DNA from: a virus
Taxonomy: Duplodnaviria > Heunggongvirae > Uroviricota > Caudoviricetes
Virus record (IMG/VR): IMGVR_UViG_2690316231_000010
Span: 1-12,628 of that record
Length of the DNA: 12,628 nucleotides
Strand: one strand, 5' to 3'
Under the pieces are notes generated by a model that saw nothing but the letters and a program-made list of their open reading frames with translations, was not told where the DNA came from and ran no database searches. Numbering within the stretch: the stretch's first letter is position 1; each line of letters starts with the position of its first letter. A program made the position numbers and the translations under genes. Shown here one piece after another: positions 1-12,628 of this stretch.

Positions 1-789
1 TGCATGACAAGGTCATCGGGCATTATCTGAACATAAAACACTATCAGTAAGTTGGAGTCACTACCTGTTAAGTAATGTCTGTTATTTTTTTTCTGTTGTT
101 TTCTGTATTTTGTTGTATGGATTAATAACTGTTCTGATCCCGTCATCATCTTTATAGCCAAGAGTATGGCTTCACCCGTGTTAATATCCTGGATAACTGT
201 GTTTGAAGGATTTCTGTTAATAATCTGCTCCTGCAACTCACCTGATGAGTATTAGTGGTAATACATAATCTTACTCGTAAAAGAGTATACCTTATGTCAT
301 TAAACAGTCTTCCGGCGTGTTGTTCAATCCTGTACCTCTGTTACTTATCTGGTACGTTGATATGTGTAATGCTACGTTAATTGCAATATCTGGTTATGGC
401 TTTATACCTTCAGCATTTAAAATATTTTATTACCGGAGAAACAGGGAAGTGGAAAGACTTTCGGGATAATGTCAGGCCATTCTGACGTTAATCACAGTAC
501 CAAATAACGAGAGGGTAATGGAAGTTAAAACCTGCGTAAGTTCCTCTGTTGTTCACTGGAAAAAGTGATTGCCCACACGCGTTATAAAGGCCTTTCCGCT
601 GCAGCCTGGTTAACAGAGCTTCAGGCGTTATATGCGCTGTATGGCTGTTACGTATGCTGTTCTTTGCCTGGTTCTGATACCCGTGGAAGTCGTTACCGGA
701 GGAAACACGTTCACCCTACTACCTGAGAACATCTTCTTCAAAAATTACGGCAACGCTTCTTCCTGTGTTACAGAACACGAGGAAGAAAC

Positions 790-1389
790 ATGCAAACTTA
801 TAACACCAATCCCGCTTACGAAATGGCTCCCCAGCTCCTGGAGCACTTTAACCAGCATCTGGATTCATTATTCGGGGTCTATTCGAAACTGTTACCGTTC
901 AGAATGGATTTTGCTTACCGAAAAAACACCCTCAGCTACAGATGTGCCTGCAGGTACGCCATGTGCGCGGAGATGCTGCAACTGATTAACGAGGTGGGAG
1001 AGAAACTGGTCGGGTATGCCTGGGTGATGGAATATACAGAACGTAAAGGGCTTCACATTCATTTTGTGGGCTATCTGAACGGCCAGAGCCACAGGAGTTC
1101 GTATCTGGTATCCAGATTGATGGGAGATATCTGGAGGCGGGTTACCGAGGGTAATGGTTACTACCACTGGTGCCGGTTTAATAAAAATTATCCGGTAAAC
1201 ATTAACCACGTCATTCACTATTCAGATCACAAAGCGGTGAATGATTTACGCTATGCCATCAGCTACCTGGCCAAACGGGAACAGAAAGAATGTGGCATCA
1301 TCCTGAAATGCAGCGGGCTTCCTGAAAAAAGTAACCGGGGTCGACCACGACTGGACAGCCCCCTGCCGGGGATATGTGCTCTGGTGTAA
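790..1389 (+). CDS. YfjJ/YagK-family (inovirus Gp2-like) protein, 199 aa, with an HUH-like 'LHIHF' motif
   Basis: Complete ORF with SD-like aggaag 5-10 nt upstream of the ATG; internal HxH motif and a YxxxY/K-like motif resemble the Rep-like YfjJ/YagK family found in P4-like cryptic elements; preceded by ~790 bp of AT-rich non-coding DNA. Family assignment is from memory, not a search. Confidence 0.5.
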   Translation: MQTYNTNPAYEMAPQLLEHFNQHLDSLFGVYSKLLPFRMDFAYRKNTLSYRCACRYAMCAEMLQLINEVGEKLVGYAWVMEYTERKGLHIHFVGYLNGQSHRSSYLVSRLMGDIWRRVTEGNGYYHWCRFNKNYPVNINHVIHYSDHKAVNDLRYAISYLAKREQKECGIILKCSGLPEKSNRGRPRLDSPLPGICALV

Positions 1390-1761
1390 ACCCCTGAACG
1401 ACAAGTACGGGCTGGCGCTAATCTTTGCTGTCGGTTCCGGCGGCCACTTCAGCGGCACTGCGCATTTTTTACGGCGTGGTCATTCCGTATGAACCATACG
1501 GAGATTTAACCATGACACATTCTTTACCATTCCTTCCGGCAACCGATACAGCACATCCCCCAATCTCCATCTCTGCTTACTGACTGTTTTTTACGTCAGT
1601 GGGCCATTGTGTGACAACCACAGTGCTGTAACAGCAACCAGCCTGCTTTACCCAAACTCCAGTCCAGATTTTAACTGAACCGCCATTCACACCCTGACCA
1701 CGCTGCCCGTACCGGGACGGCTGTTGCCTGCGTGTCGTCTGGCGGCTGAGGAACATATACT

Positions 1762-2141
1762 ATGTACGCAAAATCTTTTCTCGCACTTGATGGCAACGGA
1801 CGTCTGACCGGTGCCCGTACCGCACAGACTGCACCTTACGATAGCTACACCTGCCACCTTTGCGGCAGTGCACTCAGATACCACCCGCAATACGACACTG
1901 AACGGCCCTGGTTTGAACACGCTGACGAAGGGCTGACGGAGCACGGTCATGAGTGCCCTTATGTCAGGCCGGAACGCAGAGAAATACGGTTGATTAAACG
2001 TCTGCAGCAATTCGTCCCGGATACCTTACCCGTAGTACGTAAAGCCAGCTGGCACTGCAGGCAATGTCACCACGATTATTATGGGGAGCAGTACTGCACA
2101 CACTGCCAGACCGGGCGCTTCAGTGAGGAGGGGGGAGCAGA

Positions 2142-2145
<4 letters not shown>
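1762..2145 (+). CDS. Hypothetical zinc-ribbon protein, 127 aa (CxxC...H...H and CxxC-x9-CxxC)
   Basis: ORF with SD gagga ~9 nt upstream; several Cys/His pairs spaced as in zinc ribbons; stop overlaps the next ATG (ATGA). No confident family assignment. Confidence 0.4.
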
Positions 2146-4223
<2,078 letters not shown>

Positions 4224-4316
4224 TGAACTTCCAGCACATGCAGCTTCTGACCGCAGTTAGCGCACGTTAAAGCTCGCTCGACACTTCCTTGTTCGTAACT
4301 TCGATTTTGGTCAATC
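4224..4316 (-). pseudogene. ninF: ninF 5' fragment (31 codons), truncated by IS100
   Basis: Minus-strand frame starting with GTG overlapping the ninE stop (GTGA) reads ...SVERALTCANCGQKLHVLEV, matching the lambda NinF CxxC region as I recall it, then runs directly into the IS100 right end at 4223. Confidence 0.6.
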
Positions 4317-4497
4317 ACCTTGTTTTCCTCGCACGTTCTCTAAGCCACCGGATATCCCACAGGTGAGCCGTGTAGTTGAAGGTTTTTACGTCAGATTCTT
4401 TTGGGATTGGCTTGGATTTATTTCTGGAGCGTTTCGTTGGAAGGTATTTGCAGTTTTCGCAGATTATGTCGGTGATACTTCGTCGCTGTCGTCTCAT
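4315..4497 (-). CDS. ninE: NinE-like protein, 60 aa
   Basis: 60-aa basic ORF ([23 protein letters not shown]...) between ninB and the ninF fragment; ATGA overlap with the ninB stop; size and position match lambda NinE. Confidence 0.7.
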
Positions 4498-4904
4498 TCG
4501 TACCTCCTGTCGGTAAATCTGACACCCTGACCAATAGCCCAGGCTGTCGTGTACTCAATCAGGCTTGCCATGCGCTTCACGCTCATCTGTGCGCTACTTT
4601 CGCGAATGTTGACGTATTCTCCTTCAAGGCCTAGCAAAACATCAGCTTCCTGTTTTGTTGCCACTGCATGACCGCTGATCAACAAAACCTTCCATTGTTC
4701 TGGTTTTAACCATTTATCGCACCATTGAACCTGACGTGCGATATCCGCCAGCATCGCGTGAAATTTTGCGTTCTGGTCAAGGTTGCGCTTGTAGTCAGTA
4801 ATGCGGATGGTGACTGGCTTGTCTTTATCGAGAGGAGCTGAGAGGATGGCGTTGATTGCGGCTTGCTGTTGTTGCTTAGTTCGGAGGAAGATTGTTTGCT
4901 TCAT
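4494..4904 (-). CDS. ninB: NinB-family recombination protein (lambda orf-family), 136 aa
   Basis: Conserved RNLDQN motif and overall NinB-like sequence in the nin-region position after ren; diverged from lambda NinB, so probably from another lambdoid phage. Confidence 0.75.
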
Positions 4905-4906
4905 CG

Positions 4907-5179
4907 TTACTCCTTCACTTTGACTTCAGCGGCTATGATGGCTTTCATCACTGCAATTACCGTTTTGTCCTTCCCATCCTCATGCCCCATCGCATAAGCG
5001 CCTTCTTCGCCACCTTTCCAAAAGTTGTCATTCGATTCGGGCCAGTCGATATCCAGTTCAATAGCTGCCCTTGATGCCTGCCATATCACCCAGGCAAACT
5101 CTTTTAACCCGTCGTCTTCCGTGAACGGGCTTTTGTATTTTGACCACCACTCTTCGAATTGTCGGTAGCTATCGTTCAT
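4907..5179 (-). CDS. Hypothetical acidic phage protein, ~90 aa (ORF track extends it to 5194)
   Basis: ORF in the slot where lambda has ninA; the ATG at 5177-5179 (MNDSYRQFEEWW...) overlaps the stop of the upstream 25-aa ORF (ATGA), which suggests this is the real start rather than 5194. Confidence 0.5.
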   Translation of the reverse strand: MNDSYRQFEEWWSKYKSPFTEDDGLKEFAWVIWQASRAAIELDIDWPESNDNFWKGGEEGAYAMGHEDGKDKTVIAVMKAIIAAEVKVKE

Positions 5180-5253
5180 TTCCCTCTCCCCCAAATAAAA
5201 AGGCCTGCGATTACCAGCAGACCTGTTACAAGCTCAGTGATGTAGATGGTCAT
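5176..5253 (-). CDS. Possible 25-aa hydrophobic peptide (MTIYITELVTGLLVIAGLFIWGRGK)
   Basis: Short ORF not in the ORF track; its ATG overlaps the ren stop (ATGA) and its stop overlaps the next ATG (ATGA), giving a translationally coupled chain; one predicted TM helix. Confidence 0.35.
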   Translation of the reverse strand: MTIYITELVTGLLVIAGLFIWGRGK

Positions 5254-5540
5254 CTTTTAACTCCATATACCGCCAATACCCGTTTCATCGCGGCACTCTG
5301 GCGACACTCCTTAAAAATCAGGTTCGTGCTCATCTTTCCTTCCCGTTCTTCCTTGGTAGCAAACCGGTAATACACCGTTCGCCAGACCTTACCTTCGATA
5401 ACCAGAAGACCTGCCCGTGCCATTTTAGCCGCGGCCTGATTTATGCTGGTTACTGTTGCGCCTGTTAGCGCGGCAACGTCCGGCGCACAGAAGCTATTAT
5501 GCGTCCCCAGGTAATGAATAATTGCCTCTTTGCCCGTCAT
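5250..5540 (-). CDS. ren: Ren protein (lambda-type), 96 aa
   Basis: Sequence MTGKEAIIHYLGTHNSFCAPDVAALTG... matches lambda Ren as I recall it; ATGA overlap with the P stop; position after P. Confidence 0.85.
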   Translation of the reverse strand: MTGKEAIIHYLGTHNSFCAPDVAALTGATVTSINQAAAKMARAGLLVIEGKVWRTVYYRFATKEEREGKMSTNLIFKECRQSAAMKRVLAVYGVKR

Positions 5541-6238
5541 ACACTTGCTCCTTTCAGTCCGAACTTAGCTTTGATTTCTGCGATCTTCGCCAGAGCCTGT
5601 GCACGATTTAGAGGTCTACCGCCCATGACAGGAAGTTGTTTTACTGGTTCAGGGATCGCCTCACCACGGTTAATTCTCGCAGTCATATGGACAAGCTCAT
5701 CTGCGGCCTTACGGCGTAATTCCGCATCAGTAAGCGCATTGGCCCGCATGTTCTGATACAGGTTGGTAACCAGCCAGTAGTGCGCGTTTGATTTCCACGG
5801 ATAAGACTCCGCATCCAGATACAGGCCTCGCTTCCGGCAATACTCGTAAACCATATCAACCAGCTCGCTGACGTTTGGCAGTCCGGCGATAACGGATGCT
5901 TCTTCCCGGCACCATGCAACAAACTGCCCGGGTGATGGCAGAAATGGTCGATTCTGCCGACGGGCTACGCGCATTCCTGCGTTAACCTGTTCCATTGTGG
6001 TGATCCCGTTTTCCCGGAAAGCCAGAACCCACTGGCGGCGAATTTCGTTCAGTTCGTTCTGGTCACGGTTAGCCAGACTCGCCGGGAAAGTTGCCAGTAA
6101 CTGGCTGAACACACCATTGATGATCTGCGCTACCTGCTGTACCTGTGGCTTTTCGTCGTACTGTTCCGGCATATTGTTGGCGATCCGACGCATCTGCTCA
6201 CGGTCAAAGTTAACCATCTGTGCGGCGATGTTTTTCAT
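5537..6238 (-). CDS. P: Replication protein P (lambda-type DnaB loader), 233 aa
   Basis: 233-aa ORF MKNIAAQMVNFDREQMRRIANNMPEQYDEK... matches lambda P; overlaps the O stop as in lambda. Confidence 0.95.
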   Translation of the reverse strand: MKNIAAQMVNFDREQMRRIANNMPEQYDEKPQVQQVAQIINGVFSQLLATFPASLANRDQNELNEIRRQWVLAFRENGITTMEQVNAGMRVARRQNRPFLPSPGQFVAWCREEASVIAGLPNVSELVDMVYEYCRKRGLYLDAESYPWKSNAHYWLVTNLYQNMRANALTDAELRRKAADELVHMTARINRGEAIPEPVKQLPVMGGRPLNRAQALAKIAEIKAKFGLKGASV

Positions 6239-7134
6239 AGATCCACCCCGTAAATCCAGTCAGTGTTTGTCAGGTCGAGTTTTGGTTTTCCGGCTGTCAC
6301 GCCAGCCTGTTGCTTGTTACGGTTGATTTCGAGCTGGGTCCACTTGTCGCGGAGTTTGGCCGGACTCAGCACGTTACCGGACCAGAAGTTGTCCTGGCAG
6401 GCCCAGCGGAACAGTACACACATGTCGCGGTGGTTACGTCCATCACGTTCACGCATCAGACGGATATCGTTAGCCCACCCTGCAAAATTCGGTTTTCTGG
6501 CTGATGGCGCGATGGTCTTCACCATGTCAAACATCCACTCTGCGGCGGTCAGGTCTTCTGCTGTCCCCCACTTGCTGCCGCTCTGAATCGCAGCATCTGG
6601 TTTAACCACAGAAAGATCGTTTTCTGGCTGGTCAGAGGATTCGCCAGAATTCTCGAACGAATAATCTTTTCTTTTTTCTTTTGTAATAGTGTCTTTTGTG
6701 TCCCCCTGTTTTGAGGGATAGCAATCCCCCAATTTGAGGGATGTTTTATCCCTCGTTTTAGGGGATTTTCCCTCGTTTTGAGGGATACACCATTCTGAGA
6801 TGTTTTTATTTGGTCCAAACATGCCGCCTTGCTGCTTGATAATATTCATTCTGACGAGTTCTAACTTGGCTTCATTGCACCGTTTGACAGGTAACTTTGT
6901 AATCTCGCTAAGTTGAGAATCGGTGATTCTGTCCATTGGTTTATTCCACCCATAGGTTTTACGCAGAATGGCAAGCAGCACTTTAAACTGTCGCTTGGTC
7001 AGATCTGCGCCTGAATAAGCCTCAAGCAGCATATTTGATAGTCTGGCGTAACCATCATCGAGATCTGCCACATTACGCTCCTGTCCGGCAAAGTTACCTC
7101 TGCCGAAGTTGAGTATTTTTGCTGTATTTGTCAT
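6235..7134 (-). CDS. O: Replication initiator O (lambda-type), 299 aa
   Basis: 299-aa ORF MTNTAKILNFGRGNFAGQERNVADLDDGYARLSNMLLEAY... matches lambda O; the ori-lambda iterons lie inside it. Confidence 0.95.
   Translation of the reverse strand: MTNTAKILNFGRGNFAGQERNVADLDDGYARLSNMLLEAYSGADLTKRQFKVLLAILRKTYGWNKPMDRITDSQLSEITKLPVKRCNEAKLELVRMNIIKQQGGMFGPNKNISEWCIPQNEGKSPKTRDKTSLKLGDCYPSKQGDTKDTITKEKRKDYSFENSGESSDQPENDLSVVKPDAAIQSGSKWGTAEDLTAAEWMFDMVKTIAPSARKPNFAGWANDIRLMRERDGRNHRDMCVLFRWACQDNFWSGNVLSPAKLRDKWTQLEINRNKQQAGVTAGKPKLDLTNTDWIYGVDL
6701..6788. repeat. ori-lambda iterons: four ~19-bp O-binding repeats inside the O gene, with an adjacent AT-rich unwinding region (about 6655-6700)
   Basis: Four tandem copies of the motif tcccc/tccctc-N-ttttgaggga (tccccctgttttgagggata, atcccccaatttgagggatg, tatccctcgttttaggggatt, ttccctcgttttgagggatac), followed on the O-sense side by cttttcttttttcttttg. 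Confidence 0.85.
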
Positions 7135-7144
7135 AATGACTCCT

Positions 7145-7224
7145 GTTGATAGATCCAGTAATGACCTCAGAATTCCATCTGGATTTGATTAGAACGCTCG
7201 GTCTTGCACACCGGGCGTTTTTTA
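7145..7224 (+). ncRNA. oop: oop antisense RNA (antisense to the cII 3' end) with its intrinsic terminator
   Basis: Sequence gttgatagatccagtaatgacctcagaa...gaacgctcggtcttgcacaccgggcgttttttatt closely matches lambda oop as I recall it; terminator stem cgctcggt/accgggcg followed by a T-run; lies antisense to the 3' end of cII. Confidence 0.6.
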
Positions 7225-7466
7225 TTGGTGATTTCATCAAGCGCATACTTAAAAGCTCTGCTAATCGGACTGATGTCTGATGCCATGCCAAAAGCACACA
7301 AGACCGAAGCTATAAACCTCCAGTCTGTTCTGCTTATCTTCGATTCATGACAGCCAATCATCTTTGCCAGACCGCGCTGAGTAAGCGTTGACAGGTTGAT
7401 AAGTAAATCTGTTTCTGCGCGATCAACGTCGCGCTGTGATAGTTTGCTGTAATTTGTTTGTTCCAT
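7167..7466 (-). CDS. cII: cII-like transcriptional activator, 99 aa (non-lambda N-terminus, lambda-like C-terminus ...NKKRPxxxTERSxQIQMEF)
   Basis: Position between cro/nutR and O; C-terminal residues match lambda cII; HTH-like GLAKMIGCHESKISR. Confidence 0.8.
   Translation of the reverse strand: MEQTNYSKLSQRDVDRAETDLLINLSTLTQRGLAKMIGCHESKISRTDWRFIASVLCAFGMASDISPISRAFKYALDEITNKKRPVCKTERSNQIQMEF
7444..7457 (+). promoter_or_regulatory. pRE-like cII activator box (TTGC-N6-TTGT) overlapping the cII start region
   Basis: tttgctgtaatttgtttg contains TTGC-tgtaat-TTGT, close to the lambda cII recognition motif TTGC-N6-TTGC, placed as in lambda pRE (over the cII 5' end, oriented toward cI). Confidence 0.4.
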
Positions 7467-7551
7467 TTCTTAAGATTTCCAATAGTGAATAGTTAGTTGA
7501 AAGGTATGCGTGGAAACGCATATGGCCTTAGTTGGTCAGATATCTTGGGGC

Positions 7552-7600
7552 TCGCTTTTCAGCGACGTAGGACGAATGTCCGTTGTTACAAAGAGCGGCT
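7552..7600 (-). promoter_or_regulatory. nutR-like site: boxA (cgctcttt) plus boxB hairpin (tcgctgaaaagcga) downstream of cro
   Basis: On the minus strand: gccgCTCTTTgtaacaacgg...ctacgtCGCTgaaaaGCGa. The boxB stem-loop with GAAAA loop is shaped like lambda boxB and the same arrangement recurs upstream of N (nutL). A palindrome ccgcttattaagcgg spans the cro stop and a hairpin atgcgtggaaacgcat (7506-7521) follows, in the position of tR1. Confidence 0.5.
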
Positions 7601-7607
7601 CCGCTTA

Positions 7608-7823
7608 TTAAGCGGCTTTGTGCTCCGGCGGGAACACGTCATCAAGACTTACTTTTGCGCCTAACTTGTTTAGACACGCAACAAGAGCACGGCATGTTTT
7701 AAGGTCTGGGAAGCGACGACCAGATTCCCAATGTCCGATAGCTCCCTGTGTGCATCCAACTGCCTTAGCAAGTGTTGTTTGAGAGATATTCAGTGACTCT
7801 CGATATTTTCGTAGGTTGCTCAT
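7608..7823 (-). CDS. cro: Cro-like repressor, 71 aa (non-lambda specificity)
   Basis: Start MSNLRKYRESLNISQTTLAKAVGCTQGAIGHWESGRR with SD ggaggg; HTH; divergent from cI across the operator region. The ORF-track 128-aa version is an upstream extension. Confidence 0.8.
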   Translation of the reverse strand: MSNLRKYRESLNISQTTLAKAVGCTQGAIGHWESGRRFPDLKTCRALVACLNKLGAKVSLDDVFPPEHKAA

Positions 7824-7934
7824 ATGCCCTCCATAGTAACCATGAAGAAAAAAATACAATATGTACTTTTTTAATGCAAGCAAAAATACACATTGTGCAT
7901 GGATGGTTGCAATACAGAGCGTAATAATAAGGAC
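7824..7934. promoter_or_regulatory. OR operator / divergent pR-pRM region with repeated ATACA-N4-GT(A/G)C sites
   Basis: Related 13-bp sites atacaatatgtac (7854-7866), atacacattgtgc (7886-7898) and weaker atacagagcgtaa (7912-7924); the same motif recurs in OL (9528-9540, 9586-9598). Exact -10/-35 assignments are not resolved. Confidence 0.55.
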
Positions 7935-8594
7935 ATGAAAATGAAATGGTATGAACTGGCTAGATCCAGAATGAAAGAGCTCGGCATAACTCAAGAGAAG
8001 TTAGCCGAAGAGCTAGGTATGACGCAGGGTGGAATTGGACACTGGTTGCGCGGATCTCGTCATCCATCTCTTAGTGATATTGGTGTGGTGTTTAAATACC
8101 TTGGTATTGATAACATATCATTCAACCACGACGGGACATTTTCACCTGTTGGCGAATACTCATCGGCCCCAGTTAAAAAACAATATGAGTACCCTGTTTT
8201 TTCTCATGTTCAGGCTGGGATGTTCTCTCCAGAACTCAGAACCTTTACCAAAGGCGATGCGGAGAGATTGGTAAGCACAACCAAAAAAGCCAGTGACTCT
8301 GCATTCTGGCTTGAGGTTGAAGGTAACTCAATGACCGCCCCAACAGGTTCCAAACCTAGTTTTCCTGACGGGATGTTAATTCTGGTTGACCCTGAGCAGG
8401 CTGTTGAGCCAGGTGATTTCTGCATAGCCAGACTTGGTGGTGATGAGTTTACCTTCAAGAAACTGATCAGGGATAGCGGTCAGGTGTTTCTACAGCCACT
8501 AAACCCGCAATATCCAATGATCCCATGCAATGAGAGTTGTTCCGTTGTGGGGAAAGTTATCGCTAGCCAGTGGCCAGAAGAGACGTTTGGGTAA
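7935..8594 (+). CDS. cI: cI repressor, chimeric: non-lambda N-terminal HTH domain fused to a lambda-type C-terminal domain
   Basis: Likely start MKMKWYEL... at 7935 with SD aagga (the ORF track starts at 7893). From about residue [21 protein letters not shown] (nt ~8184) to the C-terminus ...[12 protein letters not shown] it matches lambda cI as I recall it; the N-terminal [21 protein letters not shown] differs. Confidence 0.9.
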
Positions 8595-8766
8595 TTTCTC
8601 TGTTTGTTTTTTAAGCTATCAATCTCTGGCTTGTGGATAAGTTGGAAGGTATTCGCTGCTAATGTATTGACATTTACAAAATATAGGTATTTTGGGGTTG
8701 TCTAAAATTACCTATAGGGTAAACTTCACTTAAGCTCCTACATGAGAGCTTCTGAGGAGAGATAAA

Positions 8767-9063
8767 ATGAAAACCTTACGTTGCATGGCCTACCAGCAGA
8801 ACGGCGTTTACGTAGCTGCATGTTTAGACCTGTCATTGGCAGCGCAAGCAGATACTATGAAAGAAGCTGTAAACAAACTGGATGAGCAGATTAAAGATTT
8901 TTTCACTGAAGCGCTATCAGAGCCGGAATATGCAAAACAACTACTAAGTCGGAAAGCACCTTTATCTATGTGGCTTAAGTATTGGGTAATTGCATTTCAG
9001 GTTTTTGTCAGAAAACGAGGTGAAGCAAAACTCTTTGCTGAGCCTTGTGATGCTCATGCTTAG
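8767..9063 (+). CDS. HicB-like (DUF1902/UPF0150-type antitoxin fold) protein, 98 aa, in the rexA slot
   Basis: N-terminal motif NGVYVAACLDLSLAAQADTMKEAVNKLDEQI fits the GxYVAxxPDLPGxxxQGDTxEEAxxNxxEAI signature of HicB N-domains; strong SD gaggaga; hydrophobic C-terminal tail with no obvious RHH/HTH. Motif-based call, not a search. Confidence 0.5.
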   Translation: MKTLRCMAYQQNGVYVAACLDLSLAAQADTMKEAVNKLDEQIKDFFTEALSEPEYAKQLLSRKAPLSMWLKYWVIAFQVFVRKRGEAKLFAEPCDAHA

Positions 9064-9074
9064 GGTTACATTAC

Positions 9075-9359
9075 ATGTTCTTGAAAAAGCTTACTCCTTT
9101 GAAATACGACGAGGTAATCAGGGGACTTAAGAAAATGGGGTTTGAAATGAAACCTAAAACAGGAACCTCTCACGAACAGTGGGTTCTCAAGAACAGTAAA
9201 GGAAAATGGGTGGTTACAGTTGATAAGCATCACGCCCCATTCTCCAGAGATTTAATAAAATCCATGGCTAAGCAAGCTGGACTGAAAGCTCGTCACTTTC
9301 ATGCGTTATGCAGAGGTGACGCAACGCTTGAGGATATAGGATTCCAAATCATTAGCTAA
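9075..9359 (+). CDS. HicA/YcfA-like toxin-family protein, 94 aa, in the rexB slot
   Basis: Motif VIRGLKKMGFEMKPKTGTSHEQWVLKNSKGKWVVTVDKHHAPFSRDLIKSMAKQAGL fits the HicA signature (GF...GSH...vtv..H...l..i.kqaGL); begins 11 bp after the upstream ORF; followed by a strong terminator. Confidence 0.55.
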   Translation: MFLKKLTPLKYDEVIRGLKKMGFEMKPKTGTSHEQWVLKNSKGKWVVTVDKHHAPFSRDLIKSMAKQAGLKARHFHALCRGDATLEDIGFQIIS

Positions 9360-9389
9360 AACCCGGCCTCAGCGCCGGGTTTTCTTTGC
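9359..9389 (+). terminator. Rho-independent terminator after the two-gene cassette
   Basis: aaaacccggcctcagcgccgggttttctttg: 8-bp GC-rich stem (aacccggc/gccgggtt), 4-nt loop, T-run; also A-rich on the 5' side, so possibly bidirectional. Confidence 0.7.
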
Positions 9390-9572
9390 CTCACGCCCCC
9401 ACCTAAAGACACATAACCAAATGTATTTATTGAAAAATAAATAGATACAACTCACTAAACCACGCAATTCTGATCTCTCCTTACATCGCCGAGGCGATAC
9501 ACCCACGCTAAAAAACAACACTATTAAATACAAAGTGTTATAAAAAATCACTCCATTTTAGAACAAATCGTA

Positions 9573-9601
9573 TTGACCCAATAAAGTACATATCGTACTA
9601 T
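9573..9601 (+). promoter_or_regulatory. pL-like promoter (-35 TTGACC, 17-bp spacer, -10 TACTAT) with overlapping OL operator sites
   Basis: ttgacc (9573-9578), 17 bp, tactat (9596-9601), oriented toward N; operator-like sites atacaaagtgtta (9528-9540) and gtacatatcgtac (9586-9598) resemble the OR sites. Confidence 0.65.
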
Positions 9602-9646
9602 TTAACCGTCAGCAGGACGCTGGAAGCCAAACGGAACAGACTGGCA

Positions 9647-9693
9647 GGCTCTTTAAACAACGTCGAACTCTCGACTACGTGGCTGAAAAGCCA
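9647..9693 (+). promoter_or_regulatory. nutL-like site: boxA (gctcttta) plus boxB hairpin (tggctgaaaagcca)
   Basis: ggCTCTTTaaacaacg...ctacgtGGCTgaaaaGCCa parallels the nutR arrangement (shared aacaacg and ctacgt spacer motifs, GAAAA loop); lies between pL and N. Confidence 0.55.
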
Positions 9694-9791
9694 GATCACC
9701 CAACCACATGAGCTGTGGGATGCAATGCCGAAGCAACCGTCTCAGGAGGAGCTTCGAGATTGCATCGCCAAAGTTTATTCGGGAGGAATCT

Positions 9792-10114
9792 ATGTCCAGA
9801 AAAACAGAATTTAAAGGCACCGCAGCTTCTCGCCGTAGAGCTCGTCGCGCAAATCTGCAAAGTCAGAAGGCGATCAGCTCCGACAAGCTACACAGGCCAA
9901 CCCCTTCACGAGTGGTCTTGCAATGCAAGCGCAAACCAGCAATGAGAGCAGAAGTAATAACACTGACAACGCTGACCAGAAAATATGAAGGCTCAACTTG
10001 TCTTCCAAACGTAGCTCTTTACGCGGCAGGCTACCGGAAATCCAAACAACTGACAGCAAGATGACTTGTGTTGGTCGCCAGAAAATGAAATTAGGCAGCA
10101 AACCACTTATTTGA
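9792..10114 (+). pseudogene. N: N antiterminator homologue with an apparent -1 frameshift
   Basis: Start MSRKTEFKGTAASRRRARRANLQ (arginine-rich motif, SD gggagga) is in one frame and ends at the stop at 10062-10064; the conserved N C-terminus TCVGRQKMKLGSKPLI* (lambda ...TCSGRQKIKGKSIPLI) is in the +2 frame ending 10114. The span is 323 nt, one short of 324 (107 codons plus stop). Confidence 0.55.
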
Positions 10115-10122
10115 GGTGAGAT

Positions 10123-10209
10123 ATGGAAGAAGAATTTGAAGAGTTCGAAGATCATCCTCAGGATGTGATGGAACAATACCAGGACTATCCGTATGACTAC
10201 GACTATTGA
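10123..10209 (+). CDS. Possible 28-aa acidic peptide (MEEEFEEFEDHPQDVMEQYQDYPYDYDY)
   Basis: Strong SD gaggtga 4 nt upstream of the ATG, 8 nt after the N stop; overlaps the ral remnant start; could be a chance ORF. Confidence 0.25.
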   Translation: MEEEFEEFEDHPQDVMEQYQDYPYDYDY

Positions 10210-10290
10210 TAAGAATCAATGGTGTAGACAATACGAACGACGACAATGATTGCCAGAGAACTTGGTAAACAGAACTACAAGGCTGCCTGA
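10193..10290 (+). pseudogene. ral: ral remnant: N-terminal MTTTIDKNQWC and C-terminal ...IRTTTMIARELGKQNYKAA joined out of frame (internal ~100-bp deletion)
   Basis: Both ends resemble lambda Ral (66 aa) as I recall it, but only 98 bp remain and the halves are in different frames, with a stop at 10247-10249. Confidence 0.5.
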
Positions 10291-10294
10291 TGGT

Positions 10295-10319
10295 GGCCTT
10301 TATTTTTGTCCGTAAATAA
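10295..10319 (+). repeat. Direct repeat copy 1 (ggcctttatttttg-N4-taaataa), 5' of the 149-aa gene
   Basis: ggcctttatttttgtccgtaaataa, matched by copy 2 at 10816-10839 (ggcctttatttttggcataaataa); includes a terminator-like T-run and a possible -35 (ttgtcc) for the downstream gene. Confidence 0.6.
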
Positions 10320-10348
10320 TTTCATGCTTATTACAATCAAGGTGATAT

Positions 10349-10798
10349 ATGGAAGAACAAGCAAACAAGATTCTCGTAGAACTACTGCAAAAAGCCAGTA
10401 ATGGAATAGACGCGGCTGTTTCATTTAGCCAGGCACAGATTCCTGATGTTGTTCATCAGTTGCTGCTATGGAATATGGTTGACAGTCTGATTAAAACATT
10501 AGTGGCCATTCTAACAATCCCACTGGTTTTCTGGTTTATGAAGAAGCAGTGCCAAAGAGTTGAGACAGGTAAAATCGGTGATGAAGGATATTCATGGGAG
10601 AAAGGAAATCCCAAATACAGGCCGACAATGGTTTGGGATAGCAAAGGTGATATTAATCTTCTTATCATGCCATTGGTTGGAGTTTTGACTCTGTGGGGGA
10701 TTTTTATTATTGGTGTAGTAACCAATATGACTTGGTTAAAAATTTGGCTGGCCCCAAAGCTTTACCTTATCGAATATGCAGCATCATTGGTTAGGTAA
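10349..10798 (+). CDS. Hypothetical membrane protein, 149 aa, two predicted TM helices; moron-like insertion between ral and ea10
   Basis: SD aaggtga; hydrophobic segments LIKTLVAILTIPLVFWFM and INLLIMPLVGVLTLWGIFIIGVV; flanked by direct repeats and followed by its own terminator; lambda has no gene in this ral-ea10 interval. Confidence 0.6.
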   Translation: MEEQANKILVELLQKASNGIDAAVSFSQAQIPDVVHQLLLWNMVDSLIKTLVAILTIPLVFWFMKKQCQRVETGKIGDEGYSWEKGNPKYRPTMVWDSKGDINLLIMPLVGVLTLWGIFIIGVVTNMTWLKIWLAPKLYLIEYAASLVR

Positions 10799-10802
10799 TT
10801 TC

Positions 10803-10828
10803 AGGCCGCATAGTCGGCCTTTATTTTT
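10803..10828 (+). terminator. Rho-independent terminator after the 149-aa gene (overlaps direct repeat copy 2 at 10816-10839)
   Basis: aggccgcatagtcggcctttattttt: 6-bp stem (aggccg/cggcct), 6-nt loop, T-run. Confidence 0.65.
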
Positions 10829-10947
10829 GGCATAAATAACAGAATAAACACTGCACTGTGTATTCATTCCAACGAGTGAATACACGGAGCAATGTCGCTC
10901 GTAACTAAACAGGAGCCGACTTGTTCTGATTATTGGAAATCTTCTTT

Positions 10948-10976
10948 GCCCTCCAGTGTGAGGGCGATTTTTTATC
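10948..10976 (+). terminator. Rho-independent terminator upstream of ea10 (possibly tL1-equivalent)
   Basis: gccctccagtgtgagggcgattttttatc: stem gccctc/gagggc, loop cagtgt, T-run. Confidence 0.55.
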
Positions 10977-10993
10977 TGTGAGGATATGAACAG

Positions 10994-11362
10994 ATGCCAA
11001 ACATCAAAAAATACATCATTGATTACGACTGGAAAGCATCAATAGAAATTGAAATCGACCATGACGTAATGACAGAGGAAAAACTTCACCAGATTAATAA
11101 TTTCTGGTCAGACTCTGAATACCGACTCAATAAACACGGCTCTTTATTAAATGCTGTATTAATCATGCTGGCGCAACATGCTCTGCTTATAGCAATTTCG
11201 AAAGACTTAAATGCATATGGTGTTGTTTGTGAGTTCGACTGGGATGATGGAAATGGTCAGGAAGGATGGCCTCCAATGGATGGTAGTGAAGGAATAAGAA
11301 TTACCGATATCGATACATCAGGAATATTTGATTCAGATGATATGACTATCAAGGCCGCCTGA
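10994..11362 (+). CDS. ea10: Ea10-like protein (lambda ea10 position), 122 aa
   Basis: 369-bp ORF exactly 72 bp upstream of cIII, matching the lambda ea10-cIII spacing and length as I recall them; acidic C-terminal half. Confidence 0.7.
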   Translation: MPNIKKYIIDYDWKASIEIEIDHDVMTEEKLHQINNFWSDSEYRLNKHGSLLNAVLIMLAQHALLIAISKDLNAYGVVCEFDWDDGNGQEGWPPMDGSEGIRITDIDTSGIFDSDDMTIKAA

Positions 11363-11434
11363 GTGCGGTTTTACCGCATACCAATAACGCTTCACTCGAG
11401 GCGTTTTTCGTTATGTATAAATAAGGAGCACACC

Positions 11435-11599
11435 ATGCAATATGCCATTGCAGGGTGGCCTGTTGCTGGCTGCCCTTCCGAATCTTTACTTGAACGAATC
11501 ACCCGTAAATTACGTGACGGATGGAAACGCCTTATCGATATACTTAATCAGCCAGGAGTCCCAAAGAATGGATCAAACACTTATGGCTATCCAGACTAA
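11435..11599 (+). CDS. cIII: cIII (lambda-type protease-inhibitor regulator), 54 aa
   Basis: [54 protein letters not shown] matches lambda cIII; SD aaggag. The ORF-track 78-aa version is an upstream extension. Confidence 0.9.
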   Translation: MQYAIAGWPVAGCPSESLLERITRKLRDGWKRLIDILNQPGVPKNGSNTYGYPD

Positions 11600-11711
11600 A
11601 TTCACTATCGCCACTTTTATTGGCGATGAAAAGATGTTTCGTGAAGCCGTCGACGCTTATAAAAAATGGATATTAATGCTGAAACTGAGATCAAGCAAAA
11701 GCATTCACTAA
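11568..11711 (+). CDS. kil: Kil (lambda-type host-killing protein), 47 aa
   Basis: [47 protein letters not shown]; overlaps the cIII 3' end and the gam 5' end as in lambda. Confidence 0.85.
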
Positions 11712-12082
11712 CCCCCTTTCCTGTTTTCCTAATCAGCCTGGCATTTCGCGGGCGATATTTTCACAGCTATTTCAGGAGTTCAGCCATGAACGCTTATTAC
11801 ATTCAGGATCGTCTTGAGGCTCAGAGCTGGGCGCGTCACTACCAGCAGCTCGCCCGTGAAGAGAAAGAGGCAGAACTGGCAGACGACATGGAAAAAAGCC
11901 TGCCCCAGCACCTGTTTGAATCGCTATGCATCGATCATTTGCAACGCCACGGGGCCAGCAAAAAAGCCATTACCCGTGCGTTTGATGACGATGTTGAGTT
12001 TCAGGAGCGCATGGCAGAACACATCCGGTACATGGTTGAAACCATTGCTCACCACCAGGTTGATATTGATTCAGAGGTATAA
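11666..12082 (+). CDS. gam: Gam (RecBCD inhibitor), 138-aa long form; the 98-aa short form starts at 11787
   Basis: [24 protein letters not shown]... and internal [22 protein letters not shown]... match lambda Gam; SD caggag before the internal start. Confidence 0.9.
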
Positions 12083-12087
12083 AACGG

Positions 12088-12628
12088 ATGAGTACAGCAC
12101 TAGCAACGCTGGCAGGGAAGCTGGCTGAACGTGTCGGCATGGATTCTGTCGACCCACAGGAACTGATCACCACTCTTCGCCAGACGGCATTTAAAGGTGA
12201 TGCCAGCGATGCGCAGTTCATCGCATTACTGATCGTTGCCAACCAGTACGGCCTTAATCCGTGGACGAAAGAAATTTACGCCTTTCCTGATAAGCAGAAT
12301 GGCATCGTTCCGGTGGTGGGCGTTGATGGCTGGTCCCGCATCATCAATGAAAACCAGCAGTTTGATGGCATGGACTTTGAGCAGGACAATGAATCCTGTA
12401 CATGCCGGATTTACCGCAAGGACCGTAATCATCCGATCTGCGTTACCGAGTGGATGGATGAATGCCGTCGCGAACCATTCAAAACCCGCGAAGGCAGAGA
12501 AATTACGGGGCCGTGGCAGTCGCATCCCAAACGGATGTTACGGCATAAAGCCATGATTCAGTGTGCCCGTCTGGCCTTCGGATTTGCTGGTATCTATGAC
12601 AAGGATGAAGCCGAGCGCATTGTCGAAA
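12088..12628 (+). CDS. bet: Bet (Red-beta single-strand annealing protein), 5' partial, runs off the window
   Basis: MSTALATLAGKLAERVGMDSVDPQELITTLRQTAFKGDASDAQFIALLIVANQYGLNPWTKEIYAF... matches lambda Bet; no stop before the window end. Confidence 0.9.
   Translation, partial: MSTALATLAGKLAERVGMDSVDPQELITTLRQTAFKGDASDAQFIALLIVANQYGLNPWTKEIYAFPDKQNGIVPVVGVDGWSRIINENQQFDGMDFEQDNESCTCRIYRKDRNHPICVTEWMDECRREPFKTREGREITGPWQSHPKRMLRHKAMIQCARLAFGFAGIYDKDEAERIVE

Follow-up and report, generated by a model that had tools for sequence, protein, structure and literature searches.

The 12,628-nt stretch of DNA analysed here ('the window': positions 1 to 12,628 of IMG/VR virus record IMGVR_UViG_2690316231_000010) comes from a lambdoid prophage, of which it represents the immunity and early region, with lambda's leftward direction corresponding to the + strand. 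At positions 8595–9389, between the repressor gene cI and the pL/N region, it carries two small genes that we read, with a probability of roughly 80%, as a compact type II toxin-antitoxin (TA) module of the hicBA type ('Class 2' in the scheme of Gerdes 2024), packaged as a self-contained moron. The module consists of a hicB-like antitoxin gene (open reading frame A, or ORF-A; 8767–9063, + strand, 98 aa), the product of which is predicted to comprise the HicB N-terminal fold only, without a DNA-binding domain, and a hicA toxin gene (ORF-B; 9075–9359, + strand, 94 aa), separated by a gap of 11 nt (9064–9074). A preliminary description of this DNA had pointed out two small genes 11 bp apart, antitoxin-like then toxin-like, as a candidate prophage TA pair: both reading frames and the gap between them are confirmed, the hicB-like ORF does precede hicA on the + strand, and the TA assignment itself is supported by the HicA match, the predicted HicB fold, and the strict adjacency and co-divergence of the two genes.

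Both its sequence and its predicted fold place ORF-B in the HicA family. Residues 12–70 match the Pfam model HicA_toxin (PF07927) with 42.3 bits against a gathering score of 27, in agreement with the HicA/YcfA-type signature seen earlier in the 94-aa protein, and the PHROG search assigned the protein to phrog_353 ('toxin', E = 2.5e-18). Phmmer and profile searches of the PDB yielded no significant match for ORF-B. The fold agrees with the Pfam assignment: the AlphaFold2 model, built from a 28-sequence alignment (predicted local distance difference test score, pLDDT, of 81), has the order alpha-beta-beta-beta-alpha followed by an extra helix (residues 72–80) and a disordered end, and residues up to ~78 align with the 70-aa HicA homologue 1WHZ. 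The protein had been credited with a C-terminal extension of ~30 aa, and here the description needs trimming: with the alignment to 1WHZ running up to ~78, what is left is a variable tail of the last ~14–15 residues, which is absent from the distant 80–82-aa members of the family. His33 is located within the motif GTSHEQW, of which SHEQW is invariant across 28 homologues; the motif aligns both with GGHRLY of 1WHZ and with RGSHHQ, the GSH motif of a classical HicA from an E. coli plasmid, and by analogy with published HicA work His33 would be the catalytic residue.

ORF-A is predicted to be the HicB N-domain fold and nothing more, and it is this fold that identifies it as a HicB. The AlphaFold2 model has the order beta-beta-beta-alpha-alpha-alpha-beta, in keeping with the partial RNase-H-like beta-beta-beta-alpha-beta fold of the HicB N-domain, and the top three structures in a Foldseek search with the model were all HicB-type, albeit at E ~0.5. 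The HicB N-domain alignment covers nearly all of ORF-A, and the hydrophobic C-terminal segment LSMWLKYWVIAFQVFV, modelled as a helix (residues 66–81) and a strand (residues 87–93), therefore probably corresponds to helix 3 running into strand 4 of the fold; the separate hydrophobic tail of the preliminary description thus dissolves into the N-domain. We also considered LSMWLKYWVIAFQVFV as a transmembrane segment and rejected this idea: the segment is 16 residues long and includes K and Q, its counterparts in homologues contain R or K (e.g. WRIAFRIF), and the helix and strand align to the HicB N-domain. Since the N-domain fold takes up all 98 aa there is no room for a DNA-binding domain, and none of the ribbon-helix-helix (RHH) or helix-turn-helix (HTH) type was detected with Pfam, as the earlier reading had held.

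Several observations speak against the assignment of the pair as hicBA, most of them concerning ORF-A. The HicB-type signature previously ascribed to its N-terminus does not stand at the level of sequence, although it does at the level of predicted structure: in the Pfam scan ORF-A scores 16.4 bits with DUF1902 (cut-off 22) and 14 bits with PHD_like (cut-off 27), and there is no HicB_lk_antitox match. The NCBIfam scan of ORF-A was without match, searches of the PDB by sequence, single or profile, returned nothing significant (TTHA1013 at E = 0.78), and hhalign comparison of the HicB-like family with a classical HicB gave a probability of 0.6%. The model of ORF-A has a mean pLDDT of 75, is weaker after residue 50 and reaches 48–72 over the last 40 residues. 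Finally, Classes 1 and 2 of the Gerdes scheme are experimentally untouched (Gerdes 2024, PMC10865869).

The two genes co-diverge as one unit, and both are under purifying selection. Database searches recovered ~54 clusters for each of the proteins, mostly from Enterobacterales and with matching contig sizes, and a hicA homologue is located directly 3' of the hicB-like gene in 57 of the first 60 loci; a subsequent genome scan brought the set to 54 distinct hicB-hicA pairs, with gaps ranging from -35 to +18 nt. Identity to the window HicB co-varies with identity to the window HicA (r = 0.93, n = 34), and the ratio of nonsynonymous to synonymous substitution rates (dN/dS) is 0.02–0.10 for both genes. 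Decay strikes the toxin first: in locus L046 (5989–6545) hicB is intact and an internal deletion has removed the catalytic core of hicA, leaving a 73-aa remnant. In two further loci (L047, 6001–6273, and Trabulsiella L068) hicB is truncated after approximately residue 73 and hicA is absent. Furthermore, the family extends well beyond these loci: a search of 1.84 billion representatives with the HicB-like profile gave 1454 clusters (50% identity) at E ≤ 1e-3. Among the matches listed (150 of the 1454 clusters) most are 95–135 aa long and align over nearly their full length, which suggests that the short HicB architecture without a DNA-binding domain is widespread. No Pfam model scores above threshold for this HicB-like family (~100–115 aa), the ten distant members scanned giving at best a sub-threshold PHD_like match.

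In Class 2 hicBA modules, hicB precedes a closely spaced hicA and encodes a HicB of 63–103 codons without a recognisable DNA-binding domain (Gerdes 2024, mBio, PMC10865869). The window pair agrees with this description in its gene order, its 98 codons, the lack of a DNA-binding domain and the 11-nt gap. Moreover, the Enterobacter hormaechei pair QLT26294.1/QLT26295.1, listed as Class 2 in Table S1 of Gerdes 2024 and labelled there, tentatively, 'hicBA (plasmid)?' (PMC10865869), is 97–98% identical to the window pair and has the same 11-nt gap. RefSeq, for its part, names the two proteins 'DUF1902 domain-containing protein' and 'type II toxin-antitoxin system HicA family toxin'. Both the type of module and, in essence, its sequence are therefore known already, and the annotation itself, with the genes named and a near-identical pair catalogued, is routine. 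Added here are the predicted fold-level HicB assignment across 98 aa, the large family without a Pfam model, the mobility between moron sites and the leader elements; Gerdes 2024 does not describe the cI–N slot, the packaging with promoter, hairpin and terminator, or the range of prophage sites.

The module differs from classical hicAB (Classes 3 and 4 of Gerdes), represented by E. coli K-12 (6HPB), Y. pestis HicA3B3 (4P78), B. pseudomallei (6G26/6G1N) and S. pneumoniae (5YRZ). In the classical operons the toxin gene comes first, whereas the order in the window is reversed; classical HicB represses its operon through a C-terminal RHH/HTH domain, whereas the window HicB has no such domain and bears no detectable sequence similarity to its classical counterpart; and the window HicA adds to classical HicA the helix 72–80 and the variable tail of ~14 aa. 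The hicBA order is also found with Class 5 antitoxins. ORF-A and two distant relatives weakly match the C-terminal half of PHD_like (~63–124 of 141; 14–21 bits, below the cut-off of 27). ORF-A lacks the Phd/YefM half that binds DNA, and the weak matches hint at a kinship of ORF-A with the HicB part of Class 5 antitoxins.

The lambda map in this region reads cI-rexA-rexB-tImm-pL-N. The window follows the same order, namely cI, cargo, terminator, pL and N: a cI-type prophage repressor gene (7893–8594, + strand; Peptidase_S24 99.5 bits, HTH_3 40.9 bits; 'LexA family protein' in RefSeq) is located upstream of the slot, and on its far side are a pL-like promoter found in the promoter scan (TTGACC-17-TACTAT; 9573–9601, + strand) and the antiterminator N gene (9708–10064, + strand), a single intact ORF of 118 aa that matches N_peptide (PF25694) with 111 bits. 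The placement of the cassette in the lambda rexA/rexB slot, proposed from the outset, is thereby borne out. Lambda RexA and RexB, the products of two lysogen-expressed genes, occupy the same position, after cI and before the immunity terminator that precedes pL/N, and the likeness is positional: neither window protein matches the RexA or RexB Pfam families, and RexB is a membrane effector, whereas the effector encoded in the window has a predicted soluble RNase fold. The cI–N interval has been described as a mosaic hotspot, occupied by rexAB in lambda and by bstA in the Salmonella prophage BTP1 (PMC8585504). In mEp332, an unrelated 345-aa gene ('T2SS GspM containing protein'; L091, 2448–3535) lies between cI and a near-identical terminator. 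Both bstA and the mEp332 gene thus share with the cassette the hotspot after the repressor and the intrinsic terminator that follows; their proteins are unrelated to those of the cassette, and BstA is a proven abortive-infection protein.

By analogy with published HicAB work, HicA would be a ribosome-independent mRNA endonuclease using His33, and HicB would bind HicA one-to-one and block its active site. In the lysogen both proteins would be made from the cassette promoter and, additionally, from read-through of the cI transcript, which is to be expected as no terminator is predicted between cI and hicB (8595–8766); once the labile HicB is no longer replenished, HicA would be released. We consider the likeliest pay-off, tentatively, to be exclusion of superinfecting phages of the abortive-infection type, set off by the shut-off of host transcription. 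It is the position in the slot that suggests this role, in that it argues, by analogy with rexAB and bstA, for a lysogen-expressed defence function, and Gerdes has argued that HicA modules serve defence. A search of PADLOC-DB 2.0 with either protein gave no match at E ≤ 1, and this tells against defence, as does the one tested prophage HicAB that we found in the searched literature: HicAB2 of the P. putida prophage P1 is a functional TA system, toxic and neutralisable, and provided neither defence against the phages tried nor prophage stabilisation (PMC12894663). Similar to the window pair, HicAB2 is prophage-borne and located near a cI-like repressor, but it has the classical hicAB order.

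Next in likelihood after exclusion we place prophage addiction and plain selfish persistence, and both are to be judged against how the cassette is packaged and where it is found. Its predicted layout is that of a textbook moron: a sigma-70 promoter-like site, a leader stem-loop, hicB, hicA and a terminator. The intrinsic terminator (9358–9389, + strand) overlaps the hicA stop and consists of a 10-bp stem (dG of -16.3, within -16 to -17 kcal/mol) and then TTTTCTTT, so the strong terminator earlier placed at 9359–9389 is indeed there. Of 27 family members examined, most likewise have a hairpin and T-run after hicA, the stem sequences differing between them. Overall, the majority of enterobacterial copies retain a promoter-like site, a leader hairpin and a terminator. 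The GC content of the cassette is 41.5%, as compared to 46–53% in cI, N, O and P. Together with the other cargo in the mEp332 slot and the varied backbones, the promoter-like site, the terminator and the deviating GC content characterise the cassette as a moron. The window terminator agrees in 34 of 35 nt with the one annotated for mEp332 (immunity-region record EF120456), and it seems to be a junction common to the slot.

The identical 795 bp are present in 20 of 5426 complete E. coli genomes, on two backbones: a P22-like prophage and a lambda-like prophage at ybhC of O55:H7/O157:H7. The cI proteins ahead of the cassette on these two backbones are only 68% identical. None of the complete E. 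coli genomes covers at least 80% of the window; positions 4221–12628 and the ybhC prophage of O55:H7/O157:H7 share 98.5% identity. Across 33 distinct contexts, an S24 repressor is located immediately upstream in 8 and an N-type antiterminator downstream in 3–6; other contexts include Q/holin, Bro, the tail module (tail genes/tape-measure) and the integrase or tail-fibre ends, and in Atlantibacter the cassette is also found in plain non-phage chromosome. The unit follows at least 8 different S24 repressors. In Klebsiella prophages (L003–L006; 5001–5594) a 75%-identical hicBA is inserted within the tail-gene cluster, between DUF6246 and the tape-measure gene, complete with its own TTGAAG-17-TAAACT site and terminator, and with an extra hairpin (TTCAACC-AAA-GGTTGAA) that overlaps the -35.

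Presence at other prophage sites and in chromosomes is compatible with a module that stabilises the prophage by addiction, punishing loss of the immunity region as HicA outlives HicB; type II TA systems carried by mobile elements classically act in this way, and the cassette adjoins the repressor, a region that a lysogen must keep. We nevertheless find such a role doubtful: the prophage is chromosomal and rarely lost by segregation, deletion of hicAB2 in the P. putida prophage P1 left excision and copy number unchanged (PMC12894663), and copies with the toxin deleted or truncated persist. A selfish moron without benefit to phage or host, which is kept because its loss is costly and which spreads as its flanking promoter and terminator sequences aid recombination between phages, strikes us as just as doubtful. 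It would fit the occurrence of the same unit in many unrelated contexts, the rarity of the cassette (those 20 of 5426 complete E. coli genomes), the existence of decayed copies, and the terminator held in common with mEp332, which has different cargo; it would not lead one to expect the strong purifying selection on both genes over long divergence, the size of the broader family (1454 clusters at 50% identity, E ≤ 1e-3) or the repeated placement in lysogen-expressed slots, which suggests a selected function.

A lytic-phase tool is improbable. According to this scenario, induction would lead to cI cleavage and an end of read-through, HicB would decay, and HicA would degrade host mRNA; the PHROGs category of the HicA family ('moron, auxiliary metabolic gene and host takeover') would accord with this, and the position after cI, with no terminator in 8595–8766, couples part of the expression to the repressor transcript. 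However, a ribosome-independent RNase would cut phage transcripts too, the cassette has its own promoter-like site and also sits in non-phage chromosome, and the searched literature holds no precedent. Finally, that the two genes are not a TA pair at all, with ORF-B being a harmless RNA-binding protein resembling a double-stranded RNA-binding domain (dsRBD) and ORF-A an unrelated small partner, accords with the lack of a significant sequence match of ORF-A to any HicB model, but is very hard to square with the invariant catalytic-site histidine and SHEQW, the specific match of both folds to HicA and HicB, the strict adjacency and co-divergence, and the toxin-first decay.

Returning to the hicBA moron, the lack of a DNA-binding domain in HicB makes it unlikely that the antitoxin controls the operon through classical operator binding, and the module thus bears on the question of how an operon with such an antitoxin is controlled. 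We therefore turn to the leader upstream of hicB. It contains two promoter-like sites. The distal one (TTGACA-15-TATTTT; 8667–8693, + strand) has its TTGACA at 8667–8672, as previously reported, and its TATTTT at 8688–8693, which makes the spacer 15 nt and not the 16 bp given before; the consensus promoter scan did not call it. We downgraded this site as the main promoter in view of the 15-nt spacer and its distribution: the -35 TTGAC is kept in closer relatives only (L019–L025, L037 and L045), the tail-module copies of Klebsiella lacking it, whereas a TTGnnn-16..18-TAnACT site is kept. It is the proximal promoter-like site (TTGTCT-16-TAAACT; 8698–8725, + strand; TTGTCT at 8698–8703, TAAACT at 8720–8725), and not the distal one, that appears conserved across divergent copies. 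TA.ACTTC is invariant across 14 divergent aligned leaders, and 33 of 59 distinct leaders contain the pattern TTGnnn-16..18-TAnnnT, where shuffles give 7.3 ± 2.5; within the closest enterobacterial clade (~16 leaders, 58–100% HicB identity) the -10 has a fixed location 38–43 nt from the ATG.

Both palindromes noted earlier as possible autoregulatory sites, CCTATAGG at 8711–8718 and AAGCTC-N8-GAGCTT at 8732–8751, are present. They are not statistically notable in the window alone, and their weight comes from conservation across loci. The first lies within palindrome P1 (TTACC-N5-GGTAA; 8708–8722, + strand), which lies within the proximal spacer and overlaps the -10. P1 is kept in the leaders of the window, L020, L037, L045 and L003/L031/L032, and lost in L025; there is a single P1-type match in the window, and one or more such matches also arise in 42 of 200 shuffles. 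We rejected the idea that P1 serves as a cI operator: it is single in the window, and it travels behind different repressors and also without a repressor.

The second, inverted repeat P2 (8732–8751, + strand), is predicted to form a leader stem-loop directly 5' of the hicB Shine-Dalgarno sequence (GAGGAG; 8755–8760, + strand), the GGAG of which is invariant in the aligned leaders. The P2 hairpin begins 6–8 nt past the -10 in four sequence types, that is, at the predicted mRNA 5' end. Its pairing is kept despite sequence change (AAGCUC/GAGCUU, GACUC/GAGUC, GUUACC/GGUAAC and AAGUUGCC/GGUGACUU, with several G.U pairs), and the window leader folds more stably than its shuffles (z = -2.7). MAFFT alignments of the leaders misregister the hairpin arms, and we therefore used an N-padded hand alignment, which biases the pair count towards structure: in this alignment of 10 leaders 89.9% of the cells pair, as compared to 17–56% in slid controls, with two pairs changing on both sides and five cells being G.U. 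With few related sequences and an alignment fitted to the structure, both of which count against it, the case for P2 as an RNA structure is suggestive. In addition, RNAfold pairs the conserved CUUCA (8724–8728) with the Shine-Dalgarno GGAG; both partners are invariant, and their pairing is hence beyond the reach of covariation. An Rfam search of 8500–9750 gave no match. In Klebsiella-type leaders P1 and P2 share TTACC/GGTAA half-sites, so the two elements could also be read as DNA operators.

Of the elements in the leader, the conserved hairpin is the best candidate for a cis-acting one. It is conceivable, if rather a long shot, that hicBA modules in which HicB lacks a DNA-binding domain are RNA-controlled, through the stem-loop and masking of GGAG by CUUCA, and that in the cI–N slot they form an RNase-based abortive-infection system that replaces RexAB. 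The leader element would in that case act by stabilising the mRNA, or as a binding or cleavage site for the dsRBD-like HicA, and control at the RNA level would, if true, answer how Class 1 and Class 2 modules are regulated. Self-contained, ~0.7 kb in size and located in the slot for which lysogen-expressed defence in lambdoid phages is best known, the cassette makes for a convenient test case.

The rest of the window adds the following. On the - strand, RefSeq names P (5537–6238), O (6235–7134), a cII-family gene (7167–7466) and a Cro-like HTH gene. In CB9615 (O55:H7; L002, 8998–9470) the annotation of the stretch corresponding to N gives a pseudogene with a frameshift and, in addition, a 'hypothetical protein', which is a comparison of annotations only. 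The pL operon contains a 149-aa ORF (10349–10795) without a Pfam or PADLOC match, followed by a DUF2528 protein (156.9 bits; 10994–11362); by position, its counterpart in mEp332 would be the gene annotated there as Ea10. Finally, an insertion sequence (IS) of the IS21 family occupies 2270–4220, just left of a NinB-like gene (4494–4904, - strand), and is termed 'IS21-like element IS100 family' in matching records; its istA spans 2356–3378 and its istB 3375–4157.

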